Of a stretch of DNA of 64,000 nt, positions 4,355 to 57,132 are shown in pieces. Source of the DNA: Planctomycetota bacterium (GTDB lineage Bacteria; Planctomycetota; SZUA-567; H5-PLA8); the NCBI GenBank assembly GCA_026184295.1, contig JAHCJK010000003.1:14226-78225 (forward strand), in the 5' to 3' direction. A model generated the notes under the pieces. The model saw only the letters and a program-made list of their open reading frames with translations. It searched no databases and was not told where the DNA came from. Made by a program: the position numbers and the translations under genes. How positions within the stretch are numbered: position 1 is the first letter of the stretch; every line of letters starts with the position of its first letter.

Positions 4355-4399
4355 CGCACTTAGGCTAAAGATCGCAGCCCGGACCCGTAAGTACGTAGC

Positions 4400-5689: not shown

Positions 5690-5700
5690 CAGGTTAGGAA

Positions 5701-27992: not shown

Positions 27993-28044
27993 CCCCGGCG
28001 CACGTGTAGGACGCGACAGAGCTTTCCGTCCGGCTGTAAAGGGG

Positions 28045-28305: not shown

Positions 28306-28307
28306 CG

Positions 28308-28844: not shown

Positions 28845-28862
28845 GATTTGTTCGGCACGCTC

Positions 28863-32757: not shown

Positions 32758-32931
32758 GGCAGGTCCTTTCCGTACCACTGGTTTGAGAGCAGACAGGTTC
32801 CGCGAAATTCGGCGAAGGAAGCATAGCCCGCGGATGACCGAACGCCTAGGGACGAAGGCGCGCGACCACCGGGTTCTGCCTTGGGACTCGAATCATACGC
32901 AGGACGCAACGCGTGCGAGAAAAATCATAAA

Positions 32932-38420: not shown

Positions 38421-39218
38421 ATGCTCCTTCAAGAACGTCACCGCTGGCTGATCGAGACCGTGCGCAAGCAGGGTTCGCTCTCCGTTTCGGAAGCGGCCCG
38501 GGCGCTGAAAGTCACGCGCATGACGGTCTACCGCGACCTGAGCGACCTCGACGCGCAGGGCGCGCTGCGCAAGGTCTACGGCGGTGCCGTGGCGCTGCAC
38601 CGCCCGACCGACGGCAACGGTTTCTGGGCGCAGTCCTTCGAGGAACGCCGGCCGAAGGAGCCGGACCGCAAGACGGCGATCTCGCGGCATCTGGCGCGGC
38701 TGCTGGAAGGTTCGCACACGCTGGCGATGGACGCGAGTTCCACGGTCTTCGCGCTCGCGCACGAACTCCCCGGATTCAACGACTCGCGCAGCCTTTTCGT
38801 GGTCACCGGCGGCGTGCCGCTCTTTCACGAACTGATGAACCGCGGCGGGCGCGTGCGCATCGCGCTGCACGGCGGCGAACCTCATCCGCGCACGGGCTCG
38901 CTGGTCGGCCCGCTGGCGCTGGCGTCTTTAAAGGTGATGCGCTTCGACTGGGCGGTCGTCTCGGCCGTGGGCATGATGGAAGACGAAGGCGTCGTGTACG
39001 ACTCCACGCCCGAGGAAGCCGAGATCAAGCGGGCCTACATGGCGCAGGCGCGCCGCAAGGTTCTCGCCATCGACACCACCAAGCTCAACCGGTCCGCGCC
39101 GTACCGGCTCGCGGATCTTTCCGAATTCGATGCATGGGTGAACGAAGAGGGAATCCACTGGACCAGCCGGAAAGCCACGCGCGCGCGCAGCGCCCGCGGC
39201 GCCGCCCGGACGGCCTAA
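38421..39218 (+). CDS. DeoR-family transcriptional regulator (rhamnose operon regulator-like)
   Basis: An N-terminal HTH (LSVSEAARALKVTRMTVYRDL) is followed by a DeoR-C sugar-phosphate-binding domain. It is the first gene of the rhaI/rhaD operon. Confidence 0.9.
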   Translation: MLLQERHRWLIETVRKQGSLSVSEAARALKVTRMTVYRDLSDLDAQGALRKVYGGAVALHRPTDGNGFWAQSFEERRPKEPDRKTAISRHLARLLEGSHTLAMDASSTVFALAHELPGFNDSRSLFVVTGGVPLFHELMNRGGRVRIALHGGEPHPRTGSLVGPLALASLKVMRFDWAVVSAVGMMEDEGVVYDSTPEEAEIKRAYMAQARRKVLAIDTTKLNRSAPYRLADLSEFDAWVNEEGIHWTSRKATRARSARGAARTA

Positions 39219-39239
39219 CGCGACGAGGGGAGCGAGCAC

Positions 39240-40472: not shown

Positions 40473-40499
40473 GTCATCGGTCAGTGGAGGTCTGCCTAA

Positions 40500-40937
40500 A
40501 TGGGCGTGCTAACCGACCTCATCGTCGCAGATCCAGCCCAAGCGAAGGAGATTTGCCAGACGCATGGCAAGAAACCCTTTCCTTCGGTGGACATTAAGGG
40601 GTTCGACCAGATCAAAGGCGCGACTCTCTGGAGCATCCTGGAAGGCTCTGACGTTTCGGATGTCGATTACGTGGTCGGGCTATCCGAGAAGTTCACGTTG
40701 TTGTGCGAGGAAAGCGATGACGGGCCTTGGGTGTACCAGGTGCCGGACGAGTTCCTGAAACTGATTGCATCCACCGAAGATGAGGCTGTTGGAGAAATGG
40801 TAGAGGCGTGGTCGCAAACCGAGGAGTTCGACGGCTACAGCCTGGAGGATGTGCAGTTCTACTTCGACACATTGTTCGAAGCTGCTACACGCTCGGACCT
40901 GGGGAGCAAGAAGCTCCTGATGTGGATTTGTCTGTAA
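40500..40937 (+). CDS. acidic hypothetical protein (145 aa), compositionally atypical gene inside the rha operon
   Basis: An ATG-initiated clean ORF. Its GC and codon usage (cta, att, aca, ttg) are visibly lower and different from the flanking rhaI and rhaD. No similarity to rhamnose mutarotase. Confidence 0.5.
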   Translation: MGVLTDLIVADPAQAKEICQTHGKKPFPSVDIKGFDQIKGATLWSILEGSDVSDVDYVVGLSEKFTLLCEESDDGPWVYQVPDEFLKLIASTEDEAVGEMVEAWSQTEEFDGYSLEDVQFYFDTLFEAATRSDLGSKKLLMWICL

Positions 40938-40959
40938 CCCTACAACGAGGAACGCAACG

Positions 40960-43083
40960 ATGAGCACAGCAGAAAAGACCTTCAAGCACGTGAGCTACCT
41001 GTGGGAGGACGCCAAGGTTCCCGCCGATCCGGTCGGCCAGCTGCTGATCCGGTCGAACTGGCTGGGCGCGGACCTGCGCATCACCAACTTCGCGGGCGGC
41101 AACACGAGCGTGAAGTGCATGGAAAAGGACCCGCTGACCGGCGAACAGACCGAGGTCATGTGGATCAAAGGCTCCGGCGGCGACCTGGGCACGATGAAGA
41201 AGTCGGGCCTAGCCTGCATCGAGATGAAGAAGTTCTTCGCGCTAAAGAAGATTTACCGCGGGCTGAAGCACGAAGACGAGATGGTCGGCTACCTGCCGCA
41301 CTGCACGTTCAACCTGGTGAGCACCGCGGCCTCGATCGACACGCCACTGCACGCCTTCATCCCGCGCCCGCACGTCGACCACCTGCACCCCGACAGCATC
41401 ATCGCCATCGCGGCCAGCAAGGACGGCGAGAAGCTGACCAAGGAAATCTTCGGCGGCAGCGTCGCCTGGATTCCGTGGCAGCGCCCCGGCTTCGACCTGG
41501 GCCTTAAGATTGGCGAATGCTACGCCAAGCACCCCGGCATCAAGGGCATCATCCTCGGCGGGCACGGGCTCTTTTCGTGGGGCGACACCGCGCGCGCCTG
41601 CTACGAGAGCACGCTGGAACTGATCGAAGCGGCCGCGGAATTCCTCGCCGCGAAGGAGAAGGCCAAGCCGGCCTTCGGCGGCAAGGTGCGCGAATCGCTG
41701 AGCCCCGAAGAACGCCGCGCGCAGGCCGCCAAGGCCATGCCGGTGCTGCGCGGGCTGACGTCCTCGGTCAAGCGGACCATCGGGCACTTCCGCGACGACG
41801 CGGCGGTCCTGCAGTTCCTCGAATCGAAGGATCTGCAACGCCTGGCGGCGACGGGCACGAGCTGCCCCGACCACTTCCTGCGGACCAAGCGCACGCCGCT
41901 GGTGATGGACCTGGACCCCAAGGCCGACCCGCTGGCCGAACGCGCCCGGCTGGCCGCGCAGTTCGACCAGTACCGCGCCGACTACGCCGGCTACTACGAA
42001 CGCTGCAAGCACCCCGACTCCCCCGCCCTGCGCCCGCCCGATCCCGCGATCGTGCTCTGGCCGGGCGTCGGGATGTTCTCGTTCGCGAAGGACAAGCCCA
42101 CCGCGCGCGTGGCGGCGGAATTCTACGTCAACGCGATCAACGTGATGCGCGGGGCCGAGACGGTCTCGTCGTACGTCGCGATCAGTGAGCAGGAAGCCTT
42201 CGACATCGAATACTGGGCGCTCGAGGAAGCCAAGCTCAAGCGCATGCCGCCCGAAGCGCCGCTCTCGCGGCGCGTCGCGCTGGTCACCGGCGCGGGCAGC
42301 GGCATCGGCAAGGCCATCGCCGAACGGCTGGCGAAGGAAGGCGCGTGCGTCGTCGTCGCGGACATGAACGAGGAAGCCGCGAAGTCTTCGGCGCAGAGCA
42401 TCATGCAAACCTGCCCCGAACGCGCCGCGGCGGTGCGTTCGAACGTCACCGACCCGAAGGACGTGGCCGCGGCCTTCGATGCGGCTTGCCTGGCCTTCGG
42501 CGGCGTGGACCTGCTCGTCAACAACGCAGGCCTTTCGATCTCGAAGTCGCTCGTCGAGACCACCGAGAAGGACTGGGACCTGCAGTTCGACGTGATGCCG
42601 AAGGGCAGCTTCCTGCTCAGCCAGGCCGCGGCGCGCTGCTTCGATGCCCAGGGCATCTCGCAGGAAGGCAGCCTGAAGAACCTCGGCGGCGACGTGGTGT
42701 ACATCGTGAGCAAGAACGCGCTGGTCGCGCAGCCGAACAACATCGCGTACGGTTCGGCCAAGGCGGCGCAGTTGCACCAGATGCGGCTGCTCGCGGCGGA
42801 ACTGGGCCCCAAGGGCGTGCGCGTCAACGCCGTGAACCCCGACGCGGTCGTGCGCGGCTCGGGCATCTTCGCCAGCGGCTGGGGCGCCGACCGGGCCAAG
42901 ACCTACGGGATCAGCGAGGACAAGCTGCCGGCCTTCTACGCCAGCCGCACGCTGCTGAACCAGGAGATCCTGCCCGACGACATCGCGCTGGCCGTCTTCG
43001 CGCTCGTCGGCGGGCAGCTTTCCAAGAGCACCGGCATGACGATTCCGGTGGACGGGGGCCTGGCGCCCGCGTTCCAGCGTTAA
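40960..43083 (+). CDS. rhaD: bifunctional rhamnulose-1-phosphate aldolase / short-chain dehydrogenase
   Basis: A class-II aldolase/adducin N-terminal domain is fused to a C-terminal SDR (TGAGSGIGKA Rossmann motif, YGSAK catalytic motif). The ~707-aa architecture matches Rhizobium-type RhaD. Confidence 0.9.
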   Translation: MSTAEKTFKHVSYLWEDAKVPADPVGQLLIRSNWLGADLRITNFAGGNTSVKCMEKDPLTGEQTEVMWIKGSGGDLGTMKKSGLACIEMKKFFALKKIYRGLKHEDEMVGYLPHCTFNLVSTAASIDTPLHAFIPRPHVDHLHPDSIIAIAASKDGEKLTKEIFGGSVAWIPWQRPGFDLGLKIGECYAKHPGIKGIILGGHGLFSWGDTARACYESTLELIEAAAEFLAAKEKAKPAFGGKVRESLSPEERRAQAAKAMPVLRGLTSSVKRTIGHFRDDAAVLQFLESKDLQRLAATGTSCPDHFLRTKRTPLVMDLDPKADPLAERARLAAQFDQYRADYAGYYERCKHPDSPALRPPDPAIVLWPGVGMFSFAKDKPTARVAAEFYVNAINVMRGAETVSSYVAISEQEAFDIEYWALEEAKLKRMPPEAPLSRRVALVTGAGSGIGKAIAERLAKEGACVVVADMNEEAAKSSAQSIMQTCPERAAAVRSNVTDPKDVAAAFDAACLAFGGVDLLVNNAGLSISKSLVETTEKDWDLQFDVMPKGSFLLSQAAARCFDAQGISQEGSLKNLGGDVVYIVSKNALVAQPNNIAYGSAKAAQLHQMRLLAAELGPKGVRVNAVNPDAVVRGSGIFASGWGADRAKTYGISEDKLPAFYASRTLLNQEILPDDIALAVFALVGGQLSKSTGMTIPVDGGLAPAFQR

Positions 43084-43209: not shown

Positions 43210-45330
43210 ATGTCCGAACCGGCGCCTCCGCACGCGCAATCTCCCGAACTTCACGGCCACCGCCGCATGCTCTCGGACCTCCCGGTGCAGACCATCGGGA
43301 TGACGACGCTGCCGTCGGAAAACCCGACCTGGCGCGGCTGGGTCCTGGGATTCTTCTGCGTCGCGGCCATCTGCCTGGTGATCCCGTATTTCGATTTCGT
43401 CCTGCGCGGCACGATGTTCTCGAACAGCATGTTTCCCGCCAGTTCGGTCTTCATCCTCTTCGCGCTTTGCGTGGGCGTGACGGCGCTCCTTTCGGCCTAC
43501 CGGACCGCCCTGGGGCTGACCAGCCAGGACCTGGTGCTGGTCTTCGGCATGACGATGGTGGTGAACGCGATTCCAGGCTGCGGCTTCTGGGTCTTCTGGG
43601 TCACGCAGACGACGGGCGGGTACTTTTTCAAGTCGCCTGAAAACAACTACGACAAGCTGGTGCTCCCGCACATCCCCGAATCCTGGGCCCCGCACGACAA
43701 CGAGACCATCCGGCCCATCGAATGGTTCTACACCGGGCTGCCGCCGGGCAAGGAGATTCCCTGGGGCGCGTGGGTCGGCCCGTACATCATCTGGTGCCTG
43801 GCCCTGCTGATGATTTTCGGAATGATCTTCGCGCTCTGCGGCCTGTTGCGCCGGCAATGGTCCGATCACGAGCAGCTCACCTTTCCGCTCGCGCAGCTTC
43901 CCCAGGATATGGTCTCCGGCCTGTACGGCGGGCCCACGGCGCCGTTTCTCAAGGACCGCCTGGCCCTGTGGGGCATCGGGCTCACCTTTCTCTTCCATTC
44001 GTGGAACAACTTCGGCGACTACTTTTCGCAGGTGCCGCGGATTCCGCAGGGCGCGGACCTGCATCAGTACCTGCTGGAACCGCCCTTAAACGCGCTGCTG
44101 CCGGTCTGGGCGAAGATTTATCCGTCGGTCATCGGCCTGACCTACCTGCTCTCGCTCGAGATCTCCTTCAGCCTCTGGTTCTATTTTCTGGCGCTGAAGG
44201 CGATCGCGTTCAGTTCGACGCAATCCGGCCTGCTGCCGATGGGCAAGTACTGGAGCGGCCCGTTCGTCGATCAGGGCACGGGCGCGCTGATCGGCATGGC
44301 GGTCGGCGCGCTGTACATGGCGCGCTACGAACTCGGGGGCTCCTTTCTGGAAGCGATCGGCAAGCGCGCGCAGCGTCAGGAAACCTCGGACCCGAGCCCG
44401 CGCCTGCTCTGGACGATGCTGGTGGCCTGCTTCGCCGGCTCGGTCGCCTGGATGATGTGGATGGGCGTCGAACCGGTGTACGCGCTGAGCATGCTTCTGT
44501 TCCTGCTGCTGGTGATGGTGGGGATGACGCGACTTTCGTGCGAAGGCGGGCTCTTTTTCATGCAGATGACGGTCTTCCCGCTGAACTTCGTCAACCTGTT
44601 CGGCACGCCGGTTAACATGGGCGCGACGCAGTACGTGCGCCTGGCCATCTGGGACCGCGTGATGGTCGCGGACTGGTACCGCGTGCTCTTCATGCCCAAC
44701 GTCATGAACGGCCTGCACCTGGCCAGCCGCACCAGCCTGCGCCGCCGGCCGCTCATGGCCGCGATGGCCTGTGCGGTGGTCGTGGCGCTCGTGGTCAGCT
44801 TCTTTTCCATGCTCACCACCGCGTACAAGGCCCCGGGCGGCGCGACGCAGATGGCCTGGTATTTCAAGGATCATCCGATCAGCGAATACAAGAGCATGGC
44901 CGCGACGACCTCGCAGATCGCCAGCTACGAAACGAAGCTCGCGAAGGCCGAAGCCGAGCAGCGCGAGGTGCCCTATTCCGACCTGCCCGATGCCGCCCGG
45001 CGCGACTGGTGGCGCGTCTTCTGGATCGGCCTGGGCATGGGGTTCATGTTCCTGAGCCTGATGCTGCGCCGGTTTTTCTTCTGGTTCCCGCATCCGATCG
45101 GCTACGTGATGTGGATGGGTCCCTACCCCGACCTGTGCCTGTGGTTCTCGTTCTTCATCGGCTGGGCGATCAAGCTTACGCTGCTGAAATTCGGCGGGAG
45201 CCGCATGTACATGCGGACGAAACGCTTCTTCATCGGAATCGTGATCGGGGAGGCCTGCGCGATCGTGGTCTGGAAGCTGGTGGCGCTCTTCGCCAACAAC
45301 ATCAACGGCATCAACATCCTGCCGGGCTGA
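43210..45330 (+). CDS. large polytopic membrane protein of uncharacterised family, paralog B (706 aa); candidate rhamnose transporter
   Basis: It is the last gene of the rha operon and has about 14 or more TM helices. It shares the motifs PFPLAQ, IYPSVIG, LSLEISFSLWF, WFPHPIGYVMWMG and LKFGG with paralog A at 11054-13198. Confidence 0.8.
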   Translation: MSEPAPPHAQSPELHGHRRMLSDLPVQTIGMTTLPSENPTWRGWVLGFFCVAAICLVIPYFDFVLRGTMFSNSMFPASSVFILFALCVGVTALLSAYRTALGLTSQDLVLVFGMTMVVNAIPGCGFWVFWVTQTTGGYFFKSPENNYDKLVLPHIPESWAPHDNETIRPIEWFYTGLPPGKEIPWGAWVGPYIIWCLALLMIFGMIFALCGLLRRQWSDHEQLTFPLAQLPQDMVSGLYGGPTAPFLKDRLALWGIGLTFLFHSWNNFGDYFSQVPRIPQGADLHQYLLEPPLNALLPVWAKIYPSVIGLTYLLSLEISFSLWFYFLALKAIAFSSTQSGLLPMGKYWSGPFVDQGTGALIGMAVGALYMARYELGGSFLEAIGKRAQRQETSDPSPRLLWTMLVACFAGSVAWMMWMGVEPVYALSMLLFLLLVMVGMTRLSCEGGLFFMQMTVFPLNFVNLFGTPVNMGATQYVRLAIWDRVMVADWYRVLFMPNVMNGLHLASRTSLRRRPLMAAMACAVVVALVVSFFSMLTTAYKAPGGATQMAWYFKDHPISEYKSMAATTSQIASYETKLAKAEAEQREVPYSDLPDAARRDWWRVFWIGLGMGFMFLSLMLRRFFFWFPHPIGYVMWMGPYPDLCLWFSFFIGWAIKLTLLKFGGSRMYMRTKRFFIGIVIGEACAIVVWKLVALFANNINGINILPG

Positions 45331-46715: not shown

Positions 46716-49466
46716 TCACATCCCCTGATTCAGGGTCGATACCCTCCTGATGACCACGCGCTTGCTCGTCTGCCTGCCCTTGTCGCTGGTGCTGCTTACG
46801 TTCACCCGTGCGCGGTAGAAGTCGCGGGTGTCGGCGTCGTACTGGGCCGAGTCGAGGTTTTCGGCCGAGACCCCGCGGTAATCGACCCAGCGCTGGGGAA
46901 TCACGAGGTTCAGGATGTGGTCGTTGAGCAGTTCCGAGGTGCCGACGGAACCGTTTTCGTTGACGGGGGGCAGCGGGTAGGTCATCGACGGGTTCATGGT
47001 CAGCAGCGTGGTTTCCGGCAGGCTGGGCAGTTGGCGATCCACGCCCACCTGGCTGGCCGTCTTCATCCCGTTGTCCTGGCAGTAGAAATCGGACCTGTTC
47101 ACGTTGGACTTGGTCCGGCGCGGCCACTGCCCGCGGTAGTACCCCAGCCCCGTCGCGGGCCAGTCGTTGCCGGTGGATCCCGTGTCGGTCTCGACGAGCT
47201 GGTCCGGGGCGATCTCGACGACCACCACGGCCTGATACCAGGTGCGCACGTCCGGATCGGTGGGGTTCAGCGCGGCCGAGGCGGCGTCCACGACTTCGGT
47301 GGTGACCACGAGCCAGTAGGTCGTGGAGGTCGTCGTCAGTTCGGTGGAAAAGCTGTCGGGGCCGAAGCAGAGCTGGCGCCAGGGAACCTGGTTGCGCGGC
47401 GCACAACTGGTCCGTTCGAAGGTGTTCGCCGGGGCGTTCTGGACGATGTCCAGGCCCTTCTCGTTGAAGGCCGCGTACGCGCCCGTGGCGACGAAGGTAT
47501 TCCGGCGGTTGTACTTCAGGTCCACGTACTCGTCGCGGCCGACGCGCATGTTGTACAGTTCGGTGATGGGGTCGCGGACGCCCGCGCGCGGATCGCTTTC
47601 GAACAGCAGGAAGTGCGTGGCGCCGCCGGCATCCCGCCAGTTCTTGCCCGGGATTATGTTGTCGAAGATTGCGTTGGCCGTGCGCTTGTCGAGCTTGCCG
47701 GGGATGATCTCGGGCGTATCTCGAACGTCAAAACTGACTGTCAATTCTCCATCCGGTACGATGGTCTCGCCATTGGGCCCGGTGTAGGCGGCCTGCCCCG
47801 CCACGTCGTACACCATTTCGTCGCCCGAAGTATAGATGTACCCGGGATTGACGACGGTGTTGTCGGTCCAAGCGTTGTTCCTTTCGGTCATGACCACCAG
47901 ATCTTCGGCAATCTTGCGGCGGAATTCTTCAAGCCCGTAAGGAAAGCGCGTGCGCCCGTAGTAGTCGGTCATCGCGTAATTGTTCGCGGTGTCCTGGGAA
48001 CTGTCCCCATAGGGGGCGGTTCCGGTGGGGCGGAATGCATACTTTACCCTTTGAGCTTCCGCAAGCTGCAGCGCACCCTTTCGATTCCCCGTCTGAGTGC
48101 TGGTGAACGCAAACTGTTGATAGTAGGAGCGCTCCGTCTGTTGGCCATTGCGCCGAAACAGTTCCCAATCACCCCATGACGATTTTTGCGTATTGTGATT
48201 GTAGCAATCCGGACGGTATCGAGCGCAGAAGTAGCGGACCATGGTTTCTTGATACCAATACGCGAGCTTGACTTGCAGTTCCTCGATATGGGTAATCGCA
48301 TTGTCGATCTGCGCGGCGGTGAGGGGGTTGTTGGAGGCGTCGCGCCACGTTGTCGTGTCGGCCTGTGCGTCCAGAACGATCTTTGGAGTCGTGCCGGAAC
48401 TGTCATGATCGATCCAAAACTTGCCGACCTTGATGATGCGGGCGAGCGATTCGACGTTAAAGACCCCTTCAAGCACGAACGACCAGCTATTTTCCGACCC
48501 GGCGACCACCATCGGCATCACGTTGCCTGACATCTCGCAGGTGTTGACGTTGACGGGGCAGCGCCCGGTGTCGGGATCCGCGCCCGCCTGAACGGTGTGC
48601 CCACCGAGGCCGACCTGATAGTACCAGTTGCCGCCCGTGTCGGGCGCTTCGTCCACGAAGATATTCTTCCAGCCGTTGAATTCGGGGCCCCACAGCCCTT
48701 CCCAGGAGGTGTTGGTGGTGATCCAGTTCGGCGAGACCATCTTATAGTCGCCGCCGAAGGACCAGTTGTACTTCAGGTAGCGGACCGTGCGCGTGGCCAT
48801 GCGCCAGCCTTCCGCGTAGCGATAGGGGCCGAAGTTGCCGTTGTAAGCCTGTCCCGCCCGCGAGGCGCGTTGGGGTTCAAAGTGGTTGATGCCGGTGCCG
48901 TCCATGAGCATGTGCGCCATCTGGCATTGCGTGGGGTTGCAGTCTTCGTTCCAATCGTTGATGGCCAGGGCGGAATTGGCGTCCACCACCTGCACGCAAA
49001 AGCGCCCGCGCGTGCTCCCGTCGGGAAAGAAGTCCGCGGGCATGTACTTCCATTTCGCATCCTTCATGCGCATGTACTTGTCGATGTACCGGTTGGGCGA
49101 CGTTCCGTCGGTGTAGCCGCTGGGCAGCGTCTTCACGAAGGGATCGTAGGGCGTGTACCACCACTGTCCGCCGCCGTTGGCGGAGTCGTCGTTGGCGTGG
49201 CTGACCCACTTGGTCGGATCGAACCGCTGCGTGGTCGGGTCGATCACGTGGTTGGCGATGTTGGCGATGGCCCAGTCCATCGAGGACTGCGCCAGGTCCA
49301 TGGCGTCGGTCTTGTCGCGCAGGTGGCTGACCGAAGCGACCTGCGTGCGCGTCAGGCTCATGAAGCCCACGACCACCGCGAGCAGCACGGCCAGCAGCCC
49401 GACCACGACGATGAGGATGAACCCCCGTCGCGTCAGCCGTTCCCTGTTCCAGAGCGATGCCGCCAT
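46716..49466 (-). CDS. giant GspK-like minor pseudopilin / pilus tip-associated protein (917 aa)
   Basis: The start is taken at ATG MAASLWNRERLTRRGFILIVVVGLLAVLLAVVVGF, a hydrophobic N-terminal segment of the GspK/PilX type. It is the last pseudopilin gene in the cluster. Confidence 0.6.
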   Translation of the reverse strand: MAASLWNRERLTRRGFILIVVVGLLAVLLAVVVGFMSLTRTQVASVSHLRDKTDAMDLAQSSMDWAIANIANHVIDPTTQRFDPTKWVSHANDDSANGGGQWWYTPYDPFVKTLPSGYTDGTSPNRYIDKYMRMKDAKWKYMPADFFPDGSTRGRFCVQVVDANSALAINDWNEDCNPTQCQMAHMLMDGTGINHFEPQRASRAGQAYNGNFGPYRYAEGWRMATRTVRYLKYNWSFGGDYKMVSPNWITTNTSWEGLWGPEFNGWKNIFVDEAPDTGGNWYYQVGLGGHTVQAGADPDTGRCPVNVNTCEMSGNVMPMVVAGSENSWSFVLEGVFNVESLARIIKVGKFWIDHDSSGTTPKIVLDAQADTTTWRDASNNPLTAAQIDNAITHIEELQVKLAYWYQETMVRYFCARYRPDCYNHNTQKSSWGDWELFRRNGQQTERSYYQQFAFTSTQTGNRKGALQLAEAQRVKYAFRPTGTAPYGDSSQDTANNYAMTDYYGRTRFPYGLEEFRRKIAEDLVVMTERNNAWTDNTVVNPGYIYTSGDEMVYDVAGQAAYTGPNGETIVPDGELTVSFDVRDTPEIIPGKLDKRTANAIFDNIIPGKNWRDAGGATHFLLFESDPRAGVRDPITELYNMRVGRDEYVDLKYNRRNTFVATGAYAAFNEKGLDIVQNAPANTFERTSCAPRNQVPWRQLCFGPDSFSTELTTTSTTYWLVVTTEVVDAASAALNPTDPDVRTWYQAVVVVEIAPDQLVETDTGSTGNDWPATGLGYYRGQWPRRTKSNVNRSDFYCQDNGMKTASQVGVDRQLPSLPETTLLTMNPSMTYPLPPVNENGSVGTSELLNDHILNLVIPQRWVDYRGVSAENLDSAQYDADTRDFYRARVNVSSTSDKGRQTSKRVVIRRVSTLNQGM

Positions 49467-49483
49467 GTCTGCTCCCTTGCCGG

Positions 49484-50545
49484 CTACAGGCCCGCTTCGA
49501 GCACGCCCAGGTTCTTGGCGCGGTTGAACGGATTCGGCTGGTTCACGTCCGTGTCCAGCGCCGCGCCCACGTTTTCCACGCTTCCCGCGCCCATGCCCGT
49601 CGGCACCTGCACCAGCCGGCAGAGCGTGATGCGCTTGCGCTTGCCGCGGTCGCAGACCGTGATGGTGATGCGCACGGTCTTGGGCGCGGGCGCGAAGTAC
49701 ACCACCGAATTGGCCGTGGTCCATTCCGACTCGAGTTCGCGGAACTTGCGCGTGGTCTGGTCCCACCAGGCCACGTCGAAGTCGATCAGGTTGATCCCGC
49801 TGACGTGCATGCGCGTGTAGTCGCTGATCCAGTTGTTCCAGATGACCTGGTTTTTGATCTCGTTGCCGGGCGTGAGCCGGTTGGCGTTCTCGTTCGGCCA
49901 GACGATCAGGCCGCCCGAGGGCGGCGACGGATAGTAGGGTTCGTTGGCGCGCGCGTAGTACTGCAGGGACGTCTCGATCAGGGAGACGTCGTTCAGCATC
50001 GTGGCGCGGTTGGGCGGCGCAACGCCATACTCGGTGTCGGGAAGCGGATAGAGGAGCGTCGAACGCATCGAGCCGAACCAGGCCTCGTGCGTGTTGGGCT
50101 TGTACAGGAACTGCGTCGGGTAGTTGAAGGGGTGCGTCATCGAGCCGTTCACCAGCGTGCCGCGGCTTCCCGCGCTGCCGATGGATCCCGCGAAGGAGCC
50201 CGGCTGCGGCTTGATGAGCTGCACGCCGTCGGCCTCGCGGCGCGAGAAATAATAGAGCTTGGTGTTCCCCGCCGGCGCCACGGGCGTGAACGGATCGGTG
50301 TCGTCCCACGAGCTGCTCTTGATGGAGAAGTGCTCGCCGCGTTCGTTGCCCAGCGACTGCCGGATCTCCTGCTCGAAGATATCCAGGATGTTGCGGGCGG
50401 CTTCGTAGGCGGCCAGTTTCTCCTCGACATTGCGGACCGTGCGCGTGGAGACCTGGAAGATGGGCACGACAAGCAGCATGATCGCCAGCGCGATGCTGAC
50501 CACCACCATCATCTCCAGGATCGTAAACCCGCGGCATCTCGCCAT
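49484..50545 (-). CDS. prepilin-type N-terminal cleavage/methylation domain pseudopilin (354 aa)
   Basis: The N-terminus MARCRGFTILEMMVVVSIALAIMLL carries the classic GFTxxE prepilin motif. Confidence 0.65.
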   Translation of the reverse strand: MARCRGFTILEMMVVVSIALAIMLLVVPIFQVSTRTVRNVEEKLAAYEAARNILDIFEQEIRQSLGNERGEHFSIKSSSWDDTDPFTPVAPAGNTKLYYFSRREADGVQLIKPQPGSFAGSIGSAGSRGTLVNGSMTHPFNYPTQFLYKPNTHEAWFGSMRSTLLYPLPDTEYGVAPPNRATMLNDVSLIETSLQYYARANEPYYPSPPSGGLIVWPNENANRLTPGNEIKNQVIWNNWISDYTRMHVSGINLIDFDVAWWDQTTRKFRELESEWTTANSVVYFAPAPKTVRITITVCDRGKRKRITLCRLVQVPTGMGAGSVENVGAALDTDVNQPNPFNRAKNLGVLEAGL

Positions 50546-50568
50546 CGTCCGGCTCCCGTCGCTTCGGA

Positions 50569-51138
50569 TCAGTTCCCGTACGAATACATGTACTGCGTGT
50601 AGCGCTGTTCCTTCTTCGTGCCCTTCAGGTTGATCACGATGGTCACGCGCGTCAGGCCCACGTCGGCGCCCGCGTTCACCACCGGCACGTACGGCGACGT
50701 GTTGGGCGCCGCGGGCGTCGCGTTGCTGTCCAGCCCGACGCTCCTGAGTTCGCCCTGGTCCACCAGCCACTGGTAGCGTTCGATGTCGTCGAAGTATTCG
50801 TAGGTTTCGCCCGCGCCGTGCGCGAAGTCGCGCCAGCCGCCGGCGTTCCCGTTCTTCTGTTCCTGCCCGCGCGGCGGCGCAAGGGCCGCGTCCATGTAAC
50901 CGGACCCGTCGAGCAGGTCCACGCGCGGGTCGATGCGGTCGCGGCGGAACTCCGCGAACTTGGAGCGCGACAGGTGCACGGAAGCGTCGAGGAAGACGAC
51001 CTTCTGCGCCGAATCGATGCCCGTCGGCATCGCCGCCAGGATGCCCATCACGCCGATCAGGAGCACGAACAGCGCGATCAGGATTTCGATCAGCGTCAGG
51101 CCGCGTCGGGCCGCGGGCGTATTTCGCAACAGGTTCAC
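50569..51138 (-). CDS. prepilin-type pseudopilin (about 190 aa, GTG start)
   Basis: The N-terminus …RRGLTLIEILIALFVLLIGVMGIL is prepilin-type. The start is inferred at the GTG (VNLLRNTPAA). Confidence 0.55.
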   Translation of the reverse strand: MNLLRNTPAARRGLTLIEILIALFVLLIGVMGILAAMPTGIDSAQKVVFLDASVHLSRSKFAEFRRDRIDPRVDLLDGSGYMDAALAPPRGQEQKNGNAGGWRDFAHGAGETYEYFDDIERYQWLVDQGELRSVGLDSNATPAAPNTSPYVPVVNAGADVGLTRVTIVINLKGTKKEQRYTQYMYSYGN

Positions 51139-51152
51139 GCGCGTCCCTTCGT

Positions 51153-51977
51153 TCAAAGATTGCCCGGGTACGAATCGATGCGATTGTTGATCTGCCGCCA
51201 GTCGCTCACCGAGTCGGCGGCCACCGGGCCGCTCGACGGGTTCGCCCGGATGTGCGTCAGCGTGTACGGCAGCACGCGCGGGCGCGTCGCCGAATGGCTG
51301 CGCCCCGCCTCCATGACCACGTGCTGCCCGGTCGCTTCCTCGTAAATAAGGAGAAAGTCGTACGCGTAGCAGCCGATGCCCGTGACCTGCTGCACCAGCC
51401 CGCCGCGCTGCGAAAAGACCGTGTGGTGGCGCTTGATCTCCCCGATCGGGTCCTTGCGGTACTTGGGGAAATCGAAGACGCAGCGGTACACGCCGCTCGC
51501 AAGCGAGCGCGAGAAGATGCCGGCCATGATGCGCACGCCGTCGGGATACGTGATCGCCTGCTTGGTGATCATCATCGTCGGGAAGCGGAACGGATACCAC
51601 TGGTCCGAGCCGCTGACCGCGGGCGAGATGACCGGCCGCACGTCGCCGTAGCCGCCGAACCCGAAGCCCGTCGTCGCCTGCACCGCCCAGACTTCGATCT
51701 CGCCCTTCTTCGGCACGGGGTTGGGCGAAGGCTCCAGCCCCATCGTCGCCAGGTCGTCGCCGTAATAGACCGCCACCACCGAGCGCAGGTTCTGCGCTTC
51801 GGAACGCGCATGGAAGAGCGCCGTCTCGACGGCCGAGACCGTCTGCTGAAGTTTGGACTGCTTGGCCAGTTGCGAGAACAGGGGGTACGCCATCCCCGTC
51901 AGGAGGGCGATGATGAAGATCACAAGGATCAGTTCGACGAGCGTGAACGCCCGCTTCTGCCTGCGCGGCATCTTCAT
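51153..51977 (-). CDS. prepilin-type pseudopilin (274 aa)
   Basis: The N-terminus MKMPRRQKRAFTLVELILVIFIIALL is prepilin-type. Confidence 0.65.
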   Translation of the reverse strand: MKMPRRQKRAFTLVELILVIFIIALLTGMAYPLFSQLAKQSKLQQTVSAVETALFHARSEAQNLRSVVAVYYGDDLATMGLEPSPNPVPKKGEIEVWAVQATTGFGFGGYGDVRPVISPAVSGSDQWYPFRFPTMMITKQAITYPDGVRIMAGIFSRSLASGVYRCVFDFPKYRKDPIGEIKRHHTVFSQRGGLVQQVTGIGCYAYDFLLIYEEATGQHVVMEAGRSHSATRPRVLPYTLTHIRANPSSGPVAADSVSDWRQINNRIDSYPGNL

Positions 51978-51992
51978 GGCTGCTCCCGTGCC

Positions 51993-52562
51993 CTACTTGC
52001 CCGAAACGACGTCGTCCCCGGTGCCGCCGTTATCGGTCTGATCGGGTCCAAACGAATAAATCTGAATGGTCTTTTTGGTGCGCGTCTTGGTGTTGTCCCA
52101 GACGTCGGTCTCGACCTGCGTCGTCACCTTGTACATCACCGGCTTGAACCACGGATCGACGATCACCGGACGCCCCGAGCCCAAGTCCCTCACTTCCTGC
52201 TCGCTGAACCTCCCGAAGGGCCCGCAGTTGAGCGTCGCCGCCACTTCGCCCGCGCCCGACGGCGTCTTGCGGTACGTGCGGGTCAGGAAATACGCGAGGG
52301 CTTCCGGACCGTTGTACGCCCCAAAGGCATCCGGCGGATATTCGCGGAAGTCCAGGTGGTAGCTCTCCAGGGCGTTCTGGCAGGTCTCGATCAGGGACTT
52401 GGCCGTGCTGGCCTTGGCGCGCGAACGCATGCGCGAAGTCATCCCGAAGATCGCAGCCATCAGCAAGGAAATGATGCCGATGACCACGAGCAGTTCGAGC
52501 ATGGTCATGCCACGCGCGCGCTTCGATCTCTGCGGTTGGCTGCAAGCGTCCCGTGCGAGCAC
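51993..52562 (-). CDS. GspG-like major pseudopilin (type II secretion / type IV pilin-like)
   Basis: A leader (…KRARG) is followed by MTMLELLVVIGIISLL. The downstream motif DPWFKPVMY resembles the GspG 'DPWGNPY' signature. Confidence 0.7.
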   Translation of the reverse strand: MLARDACSQPQRSKRARGMTMLELLVVIGIISLLMAAIFGMTSRMRSRAKASTAKSLIETCQNALESYHLDFREYPPDAFGAYNGPEALAYFLTRTYRKTPSGAGEVAATLNCGPFGRFSEQEVRDLGSGRPVIVDPWFKPVMYKVTTQVETDVWDNTKTRTKKTIQIYSFGPDQTDNGGTGDDVVSGK

Positions 52563-52970
52563 CCGATCCCCCTTCGTTCCAACATGAGCAACGGCGCGTG
52601 CATATCCGGAAGACGAAAATTACACTACCTTCACTTCATGTTTATGGTTGCAATTTGACAAAAAAGTCAGACATGGTGCACCTTGTTTTATAGTCAACTC
52701 AATGGTTTATACACTATGTGCATTTATCATATCAATGTATTTCCTCTTCTGAACAAGTGAGTTATAGATAAATGGGCGATTTATATTATAAACTTAATAA
52801 AGTCAATAAAATTACGTAAGTTACTACAATCGCCACTTGGTAAATATTATCTATTTTCAGTAAATACATAAGAATGACCGTAACACCAAGTCCATCTACG
52901 CGTTGAGGCTTCTCTGCAACCGCACAGCCACGGCCTAACCGCTCGAAAGTTAATACGGCGCTTCCAAGCA
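52563..52970. promoter_or_regulatory. AT-rich promoter/regulatory island upstream of the pseudopilin operon
   Basis: About 400 bp of strongly AT-rich sequence in a ~67% GC genome, immediately 5' of the GspG-like gene. Only one 72-aa ORF (52786..53004, minus strand) falls within it, and it is not convincing. Confidence 0.6.
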
Positions 52971-53061
52971 TGACCTTGGGATGGGAAGGCTTGCACGAGG
53001 GCAATCGCCCAAGGAGGCGCGGAGAAGAATCTCACGCCGTCCGACAAGATCACCCGTGCAA

Positions 53062-55881
53062 CTATTTCTTGCGCGTGGTCAGCTGGAGCGGCAGGCGCGC
53101 GAGGCCCCCGGCGGGCTTGACCTTCAGGCGCACGGCCTTCGGCGCGGCGACGTCCAGGATCAGCACGCCTCGTTCGATGCGCCAATCGACGTCGATCGTC
53201 CCGCGGCGATGCGGCACCGAACCTCGCGCCCAGGTCAGCGACGCGGAATCCGGCGCGACAAGCACTTCGTCGGGCTTGGCGCGCGTCTGCCGGACGCCCA
53301 GCGTCCGTTCGGCCATCGTGTGCATCGGCGCGCAGCTCCAGGCGTGGCAGCGGCTGCCGTTGTGCCCGATGCCTTCCCAGATCGTCCACGCGCCCTGCGA
53401 GCGCACGAACCCGTAGTTGCTGCGAATCGCCTGTTCGGCCAGGCCGGTGCGCCCGTGGTCGTAGAGCACGTTCAAGAGGAAGTAGAAGAAGTAGAGTTCC
53501 GCGTAGCCGCCCTGCCGCTTGAGGTTCTCGGGCAGGCGTTCTTCGATGTAGCGCAAGACCGCCGGCTTGCGCGCGTCGCTTACCAGGCCGAAGAAGAGCG
53601 CCAGGATGTTCGAATGCAGCGCGCCGTCGGTCACGCGTGCGCCGTTCATGCGGGTCGCCGCGTAGCGCTTCTGTCCGTCGTCCCACAGGCTCTGAAAGAT
53701 CTTGGCCGCGCGCGCGTGTTCCTTGCGGTATCGGGCGGCCTCGGCGGGCTTCTTCAAGGCTGCGGCCAGCTGCGCGGCGGCCTCGTACGCGCCGCAGCGG
53801 ATGGCGTTCAGCGGACCGCTCTCGCCCTTCTTCGTCTCCTTCGCCGCGCCCCAGTCGCAGAAGACGTGCAGATTGTCCGCGTTCCACAGGCCGCCCGGCG
53901 CTTCCACCCAATCGGGGCTCGCGAAGATCGCCGCGACGCTCGGCCAGACTTCCTTCGCGAGACTCAGGTCGCCGGTGGCGGCCCAGTAATCGCGCAGGAT
54001 GACGATCCAGAGGAGCGTGTAATCGTGCAGCGGGTTGTACTTCCACGCGGGCACGACGTCCTGCATCTGCCCGCCGTCCATCTGCGCCTTGGCCCACAGC
54101 CAGAGGCAGCGGCGCACCATCGCCGGATCGGCGCTGACGGCGCGGTTGGCCTGGTATTCGACCAACGAATCGCCCACGTAGGCGCCGCGTTCGCGCCAGG
54201 GGCAATCGAGGTACGCGTCTTCCATGCAGGCCTGGAGCGTCTCGGTGCCGGCCTCGAAGACCCAGTTGTAAAGCGGGTCGGAACATTCGAAGCGCCCTTC
54301 GCGCTGCAGCGGATACGTCGTCTGCCGAACGGTCAGGCGGTGCAGGATCACCGGCCCCTTTGCGTCGCGCACCGCAACGGAGAGATAACGCCCGCCGCGC
54401 GGGTGAAAGCCCTCGACGGTCTCGCGCCCGCCGCGCAGCACGAAGCGGTCGGCCGACCCGATCCACCAGTTGGTCTTGAAGACGTCGATCATCCCGTCGG
54501 CGCGCAGGCGTTCGTCGTTGCAGACATCCACCACCGTGCCGGCCGGCGCCTCGATGTCCAGCCGCGCATGCCCGAGAAACTCGCCGCCGAAATCGAAGAC
54601 CACCACGCCGCCGTTGGCCTCGGTGCCGGGGATCGCGATCTCCGTGACCTGGTACGGATCGGCGTCCACCTTCTGCCCCGGCGTGTCCCAGGCCATCTCG
54701 CGGCCGGGCGCGGGCACGCGCGCGCCGTGCGGCACGGGCGTCCAGCCGCCCACCTCGGGCAGGCCCTTCAGGTCGGCGGGAACGCGCGTGCGTTCGCGCT
54801 CGAGCACATCCACGTCCACGGGGCCGCTGTGGATCATGCACGCGGCCGCGCCTTCGCGCGGTTCGGCGGACGCCACGATCCCCTTCCCCGCCGGGATGCC
54901 GATGAGGATGCTCCAGCATTCGGCGAGCATCTCCGGTTCGCCGTAGAGGAAGTTCCAGCCTTTGCGCAGGCGCACGGGATAGTCTTCGCGGTTGCCCAGG
55001 CGCTCGGTCTTGACCCGCTGGATCGGCTCGCCGTTCAGGTAATTCGGGCCCCACCAGATGCCGATCGTCACGTCCTGTTCTTCGGGCGAATACAAATGCG
55101 TCGCGTAGCAGACGCGCGGACGCTTGCTCCCACGCGGGCCCACCGAGGCGTCGATGCGGCAGCCGATGCGGTACTCGGTGGCGTCCAGCGCCGCGACGGT
55201 CAGCGTCCGCTCCGGCAGGCGTTCGTGCATCGTCAGCATTGGAATCGAACGCGGCGTGAACGGGCCCCAGAAACCCTGGTTCGCCAGCGGCGTGGGAGCG
55301 GGCCACGCGCCGTCGTCGAAGGAGGCCTCGAACCACGCGGCGGGAATCCCGCGCAGATCGGCGATCTCGACCGGGCCCTGCGCGAAGCTGAACGGCGGCG
55401 CCCACGGATCGACTGCGGTCAGCGGCATGGCCTTCCACGCGCCGGGTGTGGAAAGGTCCACGGCGTCCTTGCCCTGCCCGGCCGCGCCCCAGGCCAGAAA
55501 ACCCGCGAGCCCCGGGAGCGACTCGAACGAACTCGCGCCCTTGTGGTTCACTTCCACCGTGACCACGTTGCGCCCCTTGACGAGGTACGGGGCCAGGTCC
55601 ACGGAGTCGTACTGCGGCGCCTTGGGCGTAAAGCGCGCCGGGCCGTACGCGGCGATGTGTCCGTTCACCCGCAGGCGGTAGCGTGTGTCGGCAAAGAGAT
55701 GCAGCAGCGCGCGTGCGGGGATCTTGGCGAGCTTGAAGGTTCTTCGAAAGAATGCGAAGAGATTGCGCCCTTCGCCTTGTGCATCAGTCCAGACCATCAG
55801 CGGTTTCGACGACGTTGTTTTCACTCCATTTTCTCCCGGCCGAACAGGCCACCCGAGCCTTTGCACGGCGTTACACAGCAT
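53062..55881 (-). CDS. alpha-L-rhamnosidase (GH78)
   Basis: The bacterial rhamnosidase N-terminal beta-sandwich (LRVNG) is present. The six-hairpin catalytic domain contains DCPWRERGAYVGD, the GH78 'DCPxRE(R)xGWxGD' signature. The ATG is at 55881; an internal ATG (MVWTD) is an alternative. Confidence 0.85.
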   Translation of the reverse strand: MLCNAVQRLGWPVRPGENGVKTTSSKPLMVWTDAQGEGRNLFAFFRRTFKLAKIPARALLHLFADTRYRLRVNGHIAAYGPARFTPKAPQYDSVDLAPYLVKGRNVVTVEVNHKGASSFESLPGLAGFLAWGAAGQGKDAVDLSTPGAWKAMPLTAVDPWAPPFSFAQGPVEIADLRGIPAAWFEASFDDGAWPAPTPLANQGFWGPFTPRSIPMLTMHERLPERTLTVAALDATEYRIGCRIDASVGPRGSKRPRVCYATHLYSPEEQDVTIGIWWGPNYLNGEPIQRVKTERLGNREDYPVRLRKGWNFLYGEPEMLAECWSILIGIPAGKGIVASAEPREGAAACMIHSGPVDVDVLERERTRVPADLKGLPEVGGWTPVPHGARVPAPGREMAWDTPGQKVDADPYQVTEIAIPGTEANGGVVVFDFGGEFLGHARLDIEAPAGTVVDVCNDERLRADGMIDVFKTNWWIGSADRFVLRGGRETVEGFHPRGGRYLSVAVRDAKGPVILHRLTVRQTTYPLQREGRFECSDPLYNWVFEAGTETLQACMEDAYLDCPWRERGAYVGDSLVEYQANRAVSADPAMVRRCLWLWAKAQMDGGQMQDVVPAWKYNPLHDYTLLWIVILRDYWAATGDLSLAKEVWPSVAAIFASPDWVEAPGGLWNADNLHVFCDWGAAKETKKGESGPLNAIRCGAYEAAAQLAAALKKPAEAARYRKEHARAAKIFQSLWDDGQKRYAATRMNGARVTDGALHSNILALFFGLVSDARKPAVLRYIEERLPENLKRQGGYAELYFFYFLLNVLYDHGRTGLAEQAIRSNYGFVRSQGAWTIWEGIGHNGSRCHAWSCAPMHTMAERTLGVRQTRAKPDEVLVAPDSASLTWARGSVPHRRGTIDVDWRIERGVLILDVAAPKAVRLKVKPAGGLARLPLQLTTRKK

Positions 55882-55913
55882 TTCTAAAGGTAAGGAAACG
55901 AGTTACCCTTTTG

Positions 55914-55970
55914 TTTACACCTTAAACTAGTTTCTGTAATTTCATTTTTATTTTTCATAAGCGGTGTAAA
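55914..55970. promoter_or_regulatory. inverted repeat TTTACACC … GGTGTAAA in the AT-rich divergent promoter region
   Basis: 8-bp inverted repeats spaced about 41 bp apart, between the GH78 and LacI-family genes. Confidence 0.35.
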
Positions 55971-56034
55971 TTATAGAGCCATGTAACTTGCACGGCGCTG
56001 TAAGTCATTTCATTTCAAAGGAGTAGATTCCGAT

Positions 56035-57132
56035 ATGGCCACCAAGAGCCCTCCCGCGGGTCCCGGTCTTTCGGATGTGGCGGCGGCCGCCAAGGTCAGC
56101 ATTGCGACGGTCTCGCGCGTGCTCACCGGCAAGGCGAACGTCGCCGAAGAAGCGCGCATGCGCGTGCTCGAAGCCGTGCGGCGCCTGAACTACAAGCCGC
56201 TCCGCCGGCCCAAGCAGAGCCTCCAGGCGCGGCAGACACCCGACGGCGTGAAGCCGACGATCGCGTACCTCTGCCACGACGAGTACCAGACCGGCCTGGT
56301 CAAGTGGGGCTCGGCCTTTGCCGCGGCCACGCGCCGTCTTCAGGAAGCGGGCTGCCGGCTGATCATGCACTTTCTGCCCGGGCGCAAGGGCGACGCGCCC
56401 ATCGACCCCAACGCCACGCGCCTGCCCGAACAGTTCAGCGCGCTGATCGCGGTGGACCGCGGCGACGCCAACTGGGTGCGCCTGGTCACCAGTTCCGGGC
56501 ATCCGGCCGTGCGCATCGGGTATTACCCGCTCAACCTGGCCATCCCGCAGCTTGTGGGCGACACCTTTAACGGCAGCCTGCGCCTGATGGAGCATCTGAT
56601 CAACAAGGGCCACCGCCGCATCGGTATCTGGCGCGTGCACGCCGAGAACGCCACCGGCGAAGGCAAGCGCGCGCAGAACGAACGCGACAAGTACGCCGCC
56701 TACCGCTACGCGCTCGATGAGGCCGGCATCGAATACAACAAGAGCTGGGAAGTGGACATGCCCTTCGAATGGCGCCAGGTCCCCGAGCGCGCCAAGCAAT
56801 TGCTCGCGGCCAAGCCCGCGCCGACGGCGCTCTTCATCGACAACGACTGGGTCACCGCGCGCATCCAGGCGATGAACGGGAACACCGACGGCCTCCCGCC
56901 GGACTGGTTCCGCCAGTTCGAGATCGCGCACTTTATCGACATGGGCAAGGACCCGGCGGAGTACGGCCTGGCCTGCGCCGCGCTGGCGATGGACCGCATG
57001 GGCGAACTCGGCGCCGGCCTGCTGCTCGAACAGCTCAGCGGCCATCGCTTCGGCCCCGACTACCTGCTCCGCGTCAACCCGTACTTCTTCACCGCCGAGC
57101 AGGTGATCGAGAGTTCCAAGCGGCTCGTCTAG
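56035..57132 (+). CDS. LacI-family transcriptional regulator
   Basis: An N-terminal HTH (LSDVAAAAKVSIATVSRVL) is followed by a periplasmic-binding-protein-like sugar-binding domain. Confidence 0.9.
   Translation: MATKSPPAGPGLSDVAAAAKVSIATVSRVLTGKANVAEEARMRVLEAVRRLNYKPLRRPKQSLQARQTPDGVKPTIAYLCHDEYQTGLVKWGSAFAAATRRLQEAGCRLIMHFLPGRKGDAPIDPNATRLPEQFSALIAVDRGDANWVRLVTSSGHPAVRIGYYPLNLAIPQLVGDTFNGSLRLMEHLINKGHRRIGIWRVHAENATGEGKRAQNERDKYAAYRYALDEAGIEYNKSWEVDMPFEWRQVPERAKQLLAAKPAPTALFIDNDWVTARIQAMNGNTDGLPPDWFRQFEIAHFIDMGKDPAEYGLACAALAMDRMGELGAGLLLEQLSGHRFGPDYLLRVNPYFFTAEQVIESSKRLV

Follow-up and report, generated by a model that had tools for sequence, protein, structure and literature searches.

The stretch of DNA analyzed here (64,000 nt of contig JAHCJK010000003.1 of a Planctomycetota metagenome-assembled genome (MAG), assembly GCA_026184295.1; hereafter the window) carries on its minus strand a packed group of six genes, A to F, of which the first five encode proteins with prepilin-type N-termini. 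We consider it likely that this locus is one copy of a self-contained pseudopilin cassette that occurs several times per genome, and that comprises a GspG-like shaft subunit, an H-I-J-K tip or initiation complex and a membrane protein, the product of gene F. This view draws on what is observed in the gene structure, in the prepilin motifs, in the relationships to GspG, GspJ and GspK of the type II secretion system (T2SS), in the conservation and multiplicity of the cassette, and in its separation from the core genes of a secretion machine.

Gene Structure of the Locus

The six genes are listed here in the order of transcription; coordinates count the stop codon and protein lengths exclude it.

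51993-52562, minus strand: gene A, GspG-like major-type pseudopilin, 189 aa, GTG start with GGGGGA upstream
51153-51977, minus strand: gene B, minor pseudopilin in the GspH position, 274 aa
50569-51138, minus strand: gene C, minor pseudopilin in the GspI position, 189 aa
49484-50545, minus strand: gene D, GspJ-like minor pseudopilin, 353 aa
46716-49466, minus strand: gene E, putative giant GspK-like cap pseudopilin, 916 aa
45359-46696, minus strand: gene F, the sixth gene, Zn-ribbon protein with three transmembrane segments, 445 aa

Genes A to E have plausible Shine-Dalgarno sequences and are separated by gaps of 14-23 nt. Gene F starts 19 nt past the stop codon of E, so that no gap among the six exceeds 23 nt, and the gene beyond F is convergent. 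A second possible start of gene C, a TTG at 51156, would give a product of 195 aa. Long plus-strand open reading frames (ORFs) lying over A to E do not show the high GC at third codon positions that marks real genes in this window of ~65% GC, and were therefore treated as shadow ORFs. The product of gene E is identical to the NCBI entry "hypothetical protein KIS92_01445" from a 94,973-bp contig of a Planctomycetota MAG.

A first-pass annotation of this DNA had described an operon of five minus-strand pseudopilin genes of T2SS type with prepilin-type N-termini at 46716-52562. Gene calls and motifs agree with the five genes, and the GspG, GspJ and GspK relationships described below agree with the type. 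The lengths it gave for A and B (189 and 274 aa) are correct, and the remaining three (190, 354 and 917 aa) are each one residue over. The five-gene extent has to be revised, with gene F making the unit one of six genes.

Conservation, Copy Number and Distance from Machine Genes

Conservation was assessed across 30 related loci (numbered with the prefix L where they have to be told apart), with only those loci that have enough flanking sequence counted in each denominator. The gene order of the cassette is kept across these loci. Members of the D family are found at 20 of 21 loci, of the C family at 16/17, of the B family at 15/16 and of the F family at 18/22, and the A family is represented at 8/16. 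Given the near-constant presence of B, C, D and F and the count for A, the conserved core can be written as H-I-J-K-F, with the GspG-like gene optional. Because F homologs lie directly downstream of an E-like gene at these 18 of 22 loci (and upstream of it in L006), gene F belongs to the cassette unit.

The operon in the window belongs to a cassette family with several copies per genome. At least three E paralogs are present in this MAG, namely KIS92_01445 in the window, KIS92_01540 on the same contig outside the window, and KIS92_16310. A related MAG (GCA_038227875.1) holds at least nine distinct cassette loci on eight contigs, most of them with similar read coverage.

Pfam scans of the large ORFs and tblastn searches with the E. 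coli K-12 Gsp proteins agree that GspD, GspE, GspF and GspO are absent from the 64-kb window, as the first reading had stated for GspD, GspE and GspF. No gene for an A24 peptidase was found in the window or in the fetched loci, and no secretin gene in any of the ~30 loci. Core machine genes occur within 10 kb of the cassette at only two of the ~30 loci, L004 and L008. In L004 (GCA_038227875.1), the cassette is immediately preceded (3341-7324) by a tandem pair of T2SSF (GspF/PilC-type) genes and by two small ORFs resembling pseudopilin genes, an adjacency that ties the family to a platform of the T2SS/type IV pilus (T4P) type. In L008, a 378-aa fusion of HTH_17 with a T2SSE-type ATPase (3380-4516) is encoded ~2.3 kb upstream of the cassette.

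Some details of these two loci may be recorded here. The small ORFs of L004 encode 195 aa with a prepilin-like RG↓YALLNE and 151 aa with a GspK-like HRG↓VALTF that has no Glu at +5 (the arrow marks the putative cleavage site, here and below); a duplicated platform protein together with a second mini cap is unusual. In L008, an aminotransferase gene and gatC stand between the HTH_17-T2SSE gene and the cassette.

Prepilin-Type N-Termini

The N-terminal segments of the five products read RARG↓MTMLE (A), KRA↓FTLVE (B), RRG↓LTLIE (C), CRG↓FTILE (D) and RRG↓FILIV (E). The Pfam model N_methyl (PF07963) matches A, B, C and D above its gathering cut-off, with 26.9 bits for A (against a cut-off of 21.2), 29.5 for B and 24.9 for C. 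Gene B of the window has Ala in place of Gly at position -1, and gene E has the leader and the hydrophobic helix without Glu at +5.

These features recur among the paralogs and homologs, which were drawn from the 30 related loci and from protein searches. Within families A to D, position -1 is Gly in 29 of 33 sequences and Ala in the other four, and +5 is Glu in all 33. An alignment of 49 sequences of the D family gives the same picture (-1 Gly 38/46 and Ala 8/46; +5 Glu 46/46). The E family has Gly (32/34) or Ala (2/34) at -1, Phe at +1 in every one of the 34 sequences, and Val, Leu, Ile, Met, Ala or Thr at +5, where Glu occurs in 0/34. The cap subunits GspK and PilX are known by the missing Glu5 (PMC7541494). 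The first-pass annotation had named the loss of the Gly-1/Glu+5 context on careful alignment as what would refute it; since Gly or Ala at -1 and Glu at +5 are kept across the homologs of A to D, the context is retained and the finding stands.

Alanine at -1 accounts for ~6-17% of sequences, depending on the cassette family, with L001, L004, L006 and L010 among the loci concerned. Its recurrence across the cassette families suggests that the prepilin peptidase of this lineage accepts Ala at this position.

Gene E, a Giant GspK-Like Protein

The protein encoded by gene E is, on sequence comparison, a putative remote homolog of GspK, a reading for which the evidence is concordant and individually modest: it combines the position in the operon, the missing Glu+5, two ordered motifs, a profile match and the top-ranked fold. 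The alignment of the E family shows two invariant motifs, DANxxxNINDWNEDCNPTQCQM and DPDTGRxPVNVNT. When the family profile was compared by hhalign with a GspK profile of 52 sequences, built from homologs of E. coli K-12 GspK, the two aligned over 305 columns with a probability of 95.2% (E 2.6e-8), much of this score coming from the N-terminal helix. The E motifs VDANSALAINDW and PVNVNT align in this comparison to DxQxCFNLNAL and INxNT of GspK, so that the two motifs of the SAM-like domain of GspK (D-x5-N-[LI]-N and [IV]-N-[LV]-N-T) are present in order in E. GspK is also the commonest weak NCBIfam match within the E family (8 of 35 members). The AlphaFold2 (AF2) model of E (predicted local distance difference test, pLDDT, 77; predicted template modeling score, pTM, 0.85) has as its top Foldseek match in PDB chain T of the XcpGHIJK model, a chain that we read as XcpX/GspK from its length; the match falls short of significance.

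The curated models do not reach this family. NF037980 (GspK) gives 15.8 bits against a cut-off of 130, the T2SSK models of Pfam (PF21687, PF03934) match none of the 35 family members, and no Pfam domain at all is found in these 35. A hidden Markov model (HMM) of the family detected no GspK match and no other sequence relative among PDB sequences. Compared by hhalign with the single E. coli GspK sequence, the match of E is confined to the N-terminal helix; the relationship became visible only with the 52-sequence profile. A candidate placement of the C-terminal GspK beta-strands on E residues 700-760 was rejected: the register is the expected one (LTTTSTTYWLVV against the S-x-Y-F-x-L strand), and the alignment is not significant (P 0.1).

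The additional mass of E, which is ~3x the canonical size, is, in the family alignment, a family-specific conserved scaffold that runs along the whole chain and carries hypervariable loops, with no appended module. Conserved blocks lie at residues 26-75, 151-200, 301-350, 401-425, 501-525, 576-600, 626-650, 701-750 and 901-916, and variable or indel-rich sites at 276-300, 351-375, 426-500, 526-575, 651-675 and 801-900. Searches against Pfam, PDB sequences and (with Foldseek) PDB structures recognized no lectin, carbohydrate-binding module (CBM), vWA, adhesin or enzyme fold or domain in E. The description of the last gene as an oversized GspK-like cap is thus borne out by the profile match and the two aligned motifs. 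The proposal that it carries a large adhesin or enzyme-binding domain fares differently: with the extra mass distributed as scaffold and variable insertions and no binding or enzyme fold detected, such a domain is only conjectural. The family itself is narrow: a search of 1.84 billion proteins yielded matches in only 64 representative clusters, and all source names that were given belong to the Planctomycetota.

Genes A to D

Gene A passes the cut-off of the Pfam model T2SSG (27.5 bits vs 21) with a match that covers only positions 6-37 of the 108 of the profile, and scores 53.3 bits against TIGR01710 (GspG), under the cut-off of 88.85. It contains the DPWxxPxxY motif and a C-terminal GxGDD motif, and once the helix is trimmed, E. 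coli GspG is its best hhalign match of the five Gsp pseudopilins (P 0.0039). The T2SSG match and the DPWxxPxxY motif uphold the earlier description of this first gene as GspG-like.

For gene D, prediction points to a GspJ/XcpW fold. The AF2 model, based on the 49-sequence alignment (pLDDT 78.5, pTM 0.77), was compared with PDB by Foldseek, and XcpW/GspJ-type chains make up five of the top six matches. Rank 1 is 9a1f_S (E 2.9e-3, probability 1.0, TMt 0.55), which we take to be XcpW from the chain length and from the named XcpW entries at ranks 2, 3, 4 and 6 (5bw0_G, 3nje_B, 5vtm_W and 6utu_H). The curated GspJ model TIGR01711 is missed, at 14.1 bits against a cut-off of 64.85 and with the N-terminus only, and the NCBI name of the protein is "type II secretion system protein". 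The structure predictions that the first-pass annotation had called for thus placed D and left E with no recognized adhesin or enzyme domain.

Genes B and C are less clearly assigned. Matches of B to GspH (TIGR01708) and to Verru_Chthon D (TIGR02596) are below cut-off and N-terminal only, and its globular part has no detected relative. Gene C, the most conserved member of the cassette with 45-58% identity among paralogs, shows weak N-terminal matches to the PilV and GspI models, and at full length its best hhalign match is E. coli GspI (85%). As single helix-trimmed sequences, B, C and D gave no hhalign match to E. coli GspH, GspI and GspJ. The labels GspH for B and GspI for C are accordingly putative and reflect gene position and N-terminal similarity only.

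Gene F, the Sixth Gene

The N-terminus of the F product is rich in Pro and Ser and apparently disordered, with repeated SGR[IM]/SIRLP-like motifs. It contains a Zn ribbon, CxxC-x22-CxxC (CxxC-x21-24-CxxC in the family), whose four Cys each reach a conservation of 90% or more, three hydrophobic segments (a single one in the homologs from L002 and L004) and a C-terminal domain of ~200 aa. The odd number of transmembrane segments following a cytoplasmic Zn ribbon would place this C-terminal domain in the periplasm. Between hydrophobic segments 2 and 3 lies a conserved membrane-embedded motif, G-(A/V)-(L/I)-G-F-T-L-S-G-R-x-R-L (the GFTLSGRxRL loop), which resembles a prepilin cleavage site (G↓FTL) without Glu+5.

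Proposed Mechanism and Alternative Explanations

We suggest the following mechanism for the cassette. A prepilin peptidase encoded elsewhere would cleave A to E after the Gly or Ala at -1, and a complex of B to E would then prime assembly on a platform and ATPase of T2SS/T4P type, likewise encoded elsewhere. Subunit A or another major subunit would polymerize beneath B to E, leaving these four at the tip of the fiber with E outermost. Several such cassettes per genome could thus provide alternative tips for one shared machine, and hence alternative specificities for ligands or substrates. Any role for F is equally conditional; with its cytoplasmic Zn ribbon and predicted periplasmic C-terminal domain, F would probably recruit or regulate the complex of its own cassette.

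Several observations weigh against this proposal. The 64-kb window contains no secretin, ATPase, platform protein or prepilin peptidase, and the partner machine in this organism is deduced from a relative. Outside the N-terminal helix, B and C show no similarity to GspH and GspI (helix-trimmed hhalign P >=0.07). The relationship of E to GspK is weak once the helix is trimmed (P 7.6e-4 vs 0.57 for a reversed-profile control, probability 25%), its C-terminal half gives no significant alignment to GspK (P 0.1), and its top structural match is not significant (E 1.7). No homology backs a function for F, which had no Pfam or PDB sequence match and for which hhalign comparisons with GspC, GspL, GspM, GspF, GspO and GspE returned nothing. 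Finally, there is no sign that would favor a surface-exposed fiber over a short periplasmic pseudopilus.

A first competing explanation, which we regard as unlikely, is a dedicated T2SS pseudopilus, in which the cassette would be the cargo-specific tip of a piston, on a short periplasmic fiber, that pushes the GH78 rhamnosidase and other carbohydrate-active enzymes (CAZymes) through a secretin. The nearest relatives of A, D and E are indeed T2SS pseudopilins (GspG, XcpW and GspK) and not T4P pilins; rhamnose- and pectin-type genes abound in the window, including a GH78 rhamnosidase gene immediately upstream of the operon; in L002, the closest orthologous locus, the cassette likewise adjoins a GH78 rhamnosidase gene; and in L004 a PKD/Big_2 protein with a weak GH30 match is encoded upstream of the GspF genes. 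Such an arrangement is, however, difficult to reconcile with the other paralogous cassettes, whose flanking genes have nothing to do with carbohydrate use (GGDEF proteins, KdpD, a Ser/Thr kinase, a sigma-54 activator, a restriction-modification methylase and aminotransferases), with the count of 0/18 metagenome loci that have a rhamnosidase gene beside the cassette, and with the lack of a secretin in the ~30 loci; moreover, nine or more piston sets per genome correspond to no known T2SS arrangement. Since the other cassettes adjoin unrelated genes and the metagenome loci have no rhamnosidase, the association with CAZymes is specific to the orthologs in the window and L002 and no property of the family, and a general link between the cassette and polysaccharide-utilization genes was rejected. 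A second view, that the cassette forms the tip of a long retractile T4P-like surface fiber for adhesion or the capture of macromolecules, with ligand specificity set by the variable insertions of the cap, seems to us quite improbable, and it overlaps heavily with the shared-machine proposal, differing only in how long the fiber is and whether it retracts, points that sequence cannot decide. A parallel for several interchangeable sets of minor pilins in one genome exists in the T4aP of Myxococcus xanthus (PMC7541494), pilins that are large and modular are typically exposed at the tip and bind ligands there (PMC8179133), and dextran is bound by the pili-like fibers of Planctopirus and Gemmata (PMC5394234). 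The variable regions of E are discrete insertion hot spots on a conserved scaffold, and A is optional, as expected with a common major pilin encoded elsewhere. Against this stand the affinities in sequence and fold with T2SS pseudopilins, the lack of a detected lectin or CBM domain in E, and the fact that no PilY1, PilT, PilQ or T4P major-pilin signature is found near any cassette.

A third possibility is that the products are not fiber subunits at all, and that they are ordinary proteins of the periplasm or cell surface, for which the prepilin-like leader acts as a membrane anchor or an export signal, a role proposed for other expanded prepilin-leader families in the Planctomycetota. This would accommodate the lack of any known match to most of E and to the globular domains of B and C, and the location of most cassettes far from machine genes. 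It leaves the fixed gene order and the co-inheritance of five or six families unexplained, as well as the GspJ fold predicted for D, the T2SSG domain of A, the presence in E of the GspK motifs and the absence from it of Glu+5, and the one cassette (L004) that directly adjoins GspF genes, and we judge it highly improbable.

Returning to the cassette as a set of alternative tips for a shared machine, a more specific version would be that the copies act as swappable "tip cartridges", in which differently decorated giant caps, each with its own F, reprogram one T2SS/T4P-type machine for different ligands, for example polysaccharides, and in which F belongs to a new class of adaptors or signal transducers, specific to the cassette, between the periplasmic tip complex and the cytoplasm. 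We offer this as speculation with a rather low chance of being correct. The GFTLSGRxRL motif of F might in that case engage the prepilin peptidase or the platform protein.

The interest of the locus lies in the role of minor pseudopilin tip complexes, which determine the binding partners of a type IV filament or T2SS and the moment at which its assembly starts. Here, a lineage has an enlarged tip module, with a GspK-like cap about three times the usual size, discrete variable insertion sites, an uncharacterized Zn-ribbon partner and three to nine or more detached copies per genome. Should a single machine indeed be shared by the copies, the lineage would possess a natural set of exchangeable fiber tips. 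Polysaccharide binding by planctomycetal surface fibers has been seen by microscopy, with the fibers molecularly undefined in that study (PMC5394234). Two protein families outside Pfam, the giant cap (E) and protein F, are defined by the present analysis.

Comparison with Known Systems

In functional terms, the nearest counterpart is the set of GspG and GspH-I-J-K of the T2SS (E. coli Gsp; P. aeruginosa XcpT-X). The cassette shares with this tip the gene order G-H-I-J-K, class III signal peptides and a cap without Glu+5, as well as the T2SSG domain of A, the XcpW/GspJ fold predicted for D, and the two N-L/I-N motifs of GspK at matching places in E. It differs in the size of its proteins (E 916 vs ~330 aa, D 353 vs ~200, B 274 vs ~170), in that the curated GspH, GspI, GspJ and GspK models are missed and the GspG model is borderline, below its cut-off, and in that GspC/D/E/F/L/M/O are not adjacent, many copies occur per genome and an additional Zn-ribbon membrane gene is present.

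A second parallel is found in the Verru_Chthon families, multi-copy four-gene cassettes of Verrucomicrobium and Chthoniobacter. B, C, D and E give weak N-terminal matches to Verru_Chthon D, B, C and A (TIGR02596, TIGR02598, TIGR02599 and TIGR02600), whose model lengths of 196, 151, 361 and 1296 mirror the small-small-mid-giant pattern of the four proteins. The scores are 28.4, 11.5, 23.6 and 24.5 bits, against cut-offs of 70, 51.4, 256.5 and 332.3, and involve only the first ~60 residues. The phylum is a different one, and the cassette described here has in addition a GspG-like gene and gene F. The likeness is a parallel in architecture and not one of membership. A literature search on "Verru_Chthon cassette" found no paper.

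In M. xanthus, three clusters of minor pilins and PilY1 serve one type IVa pilus (T4aP) machine (PMC7541494). The planctomycetal cassette resembles these clusters 1-3 in the presence of several paralogous tip or priming sets per genome, in a cap pilin without Glu5 and in a very large tip protein. The large tip protein of M. xanthus, PilY1, is a non-pilin with a beta-propeller, whereas the large protein here is a GspK-like pilin; no PilY1-type domain was found in the cassette, PilX_N, for which the cut-off is 25.5 bits, reaches 14.7, and in its affinities the cassette sides with the T2SS and not with T4aP. The resemblance is therefore one of multiplicity, without membership.

GspK is itself a modular pilin (PMC8179133), and E can be set beside other modular or oversized minor pilins (S. 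sanguinis PilB, CofB of enterotoxigenic E. coli and Thermus ComZ; PMC8179133), with which it has in common a pilin module with a large extra mass, presumably displayed at the tip. In the modular pilins this mass is a discrete, recognizable or separable graft, whereas in E it is distributed along the chain and matches no known fold. Among the Planctomycetota, the binding of dextran by the pili-like fibers of Planctopirus and Gemmata (PMC5394234) makes a role in ligand capture conceivable.

Upstream Region and Genomic Neighborhood

An AT-rich island of ~300-400 nt precedes the operon. Its GC content falls to 27.5% over 200 nt, the lowest value in the window, where the next lowest is 40%.

52576-52975, minus strand: AT-rich region, likely the promoter or regulatory region of the operon (low GC, consensus matches)

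A sigma-70-like site at 52753-52726 and a sigma-54-like -24/-12 element, TGGCTGTGCGGTTGCA, at 52930, ~370 nt upstream of gene A, are both consensus matches only, and Rfam contains no match to the region. The cassettes in L004, L005, L009, L021 and L029 are also directly preceded by AT-rich islands, which are weaker; no 9-mer is shared by more than three of these upstream regions. A gene for a sigma-54 enhancer-binding protein is divergent and upstream of the cassette in L011 (5503-6849, minus strand).

The operon stands in an apparent rhamnose-utilization neighborhood (38421-43083 and 53062-57132), which includes genes for a DeoR regulator, a LacI-type regulator, a xylose-isomerase-like TIM-barrel protein, a fusion of class II aldolase and short-chain dehydrogenase (707 aa) and the GH78 alpha-L-rhamnosidase (939 aa). 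Further candidates for large secreted carbohydrate-active proteins are encoded on the minus strand at 17520-21146 (PcRGLX-like, 1208 aa), 31684-32778 (SGNH/GxDLY esterase), 33172-38247 (GH2 family, 1691 aa) and 57136-59790 (884 aa, without a Pfam domain); the 1691-aa and 884-aa proteins have in common an N-terminal "(V/W)WxEGE" motif past the signal peptide. Two paralogous membrane proteins of ~710 aa with DUF6785 and DUF6784, which may be transporters, are encoded at 43210-45330 (plus strand), convergent with gene F and beside the rhamnose-catabolism genes, and at 11054-13198 (minus strand), near other sugar-related genes. At 26853-30887 (minus strand), genes for a TonB-dependent receptor, a YfiR/HmsC-like protein (DUF4154) and a HAMP histidine kinase resemble the signaling modules of YfiBNR type.

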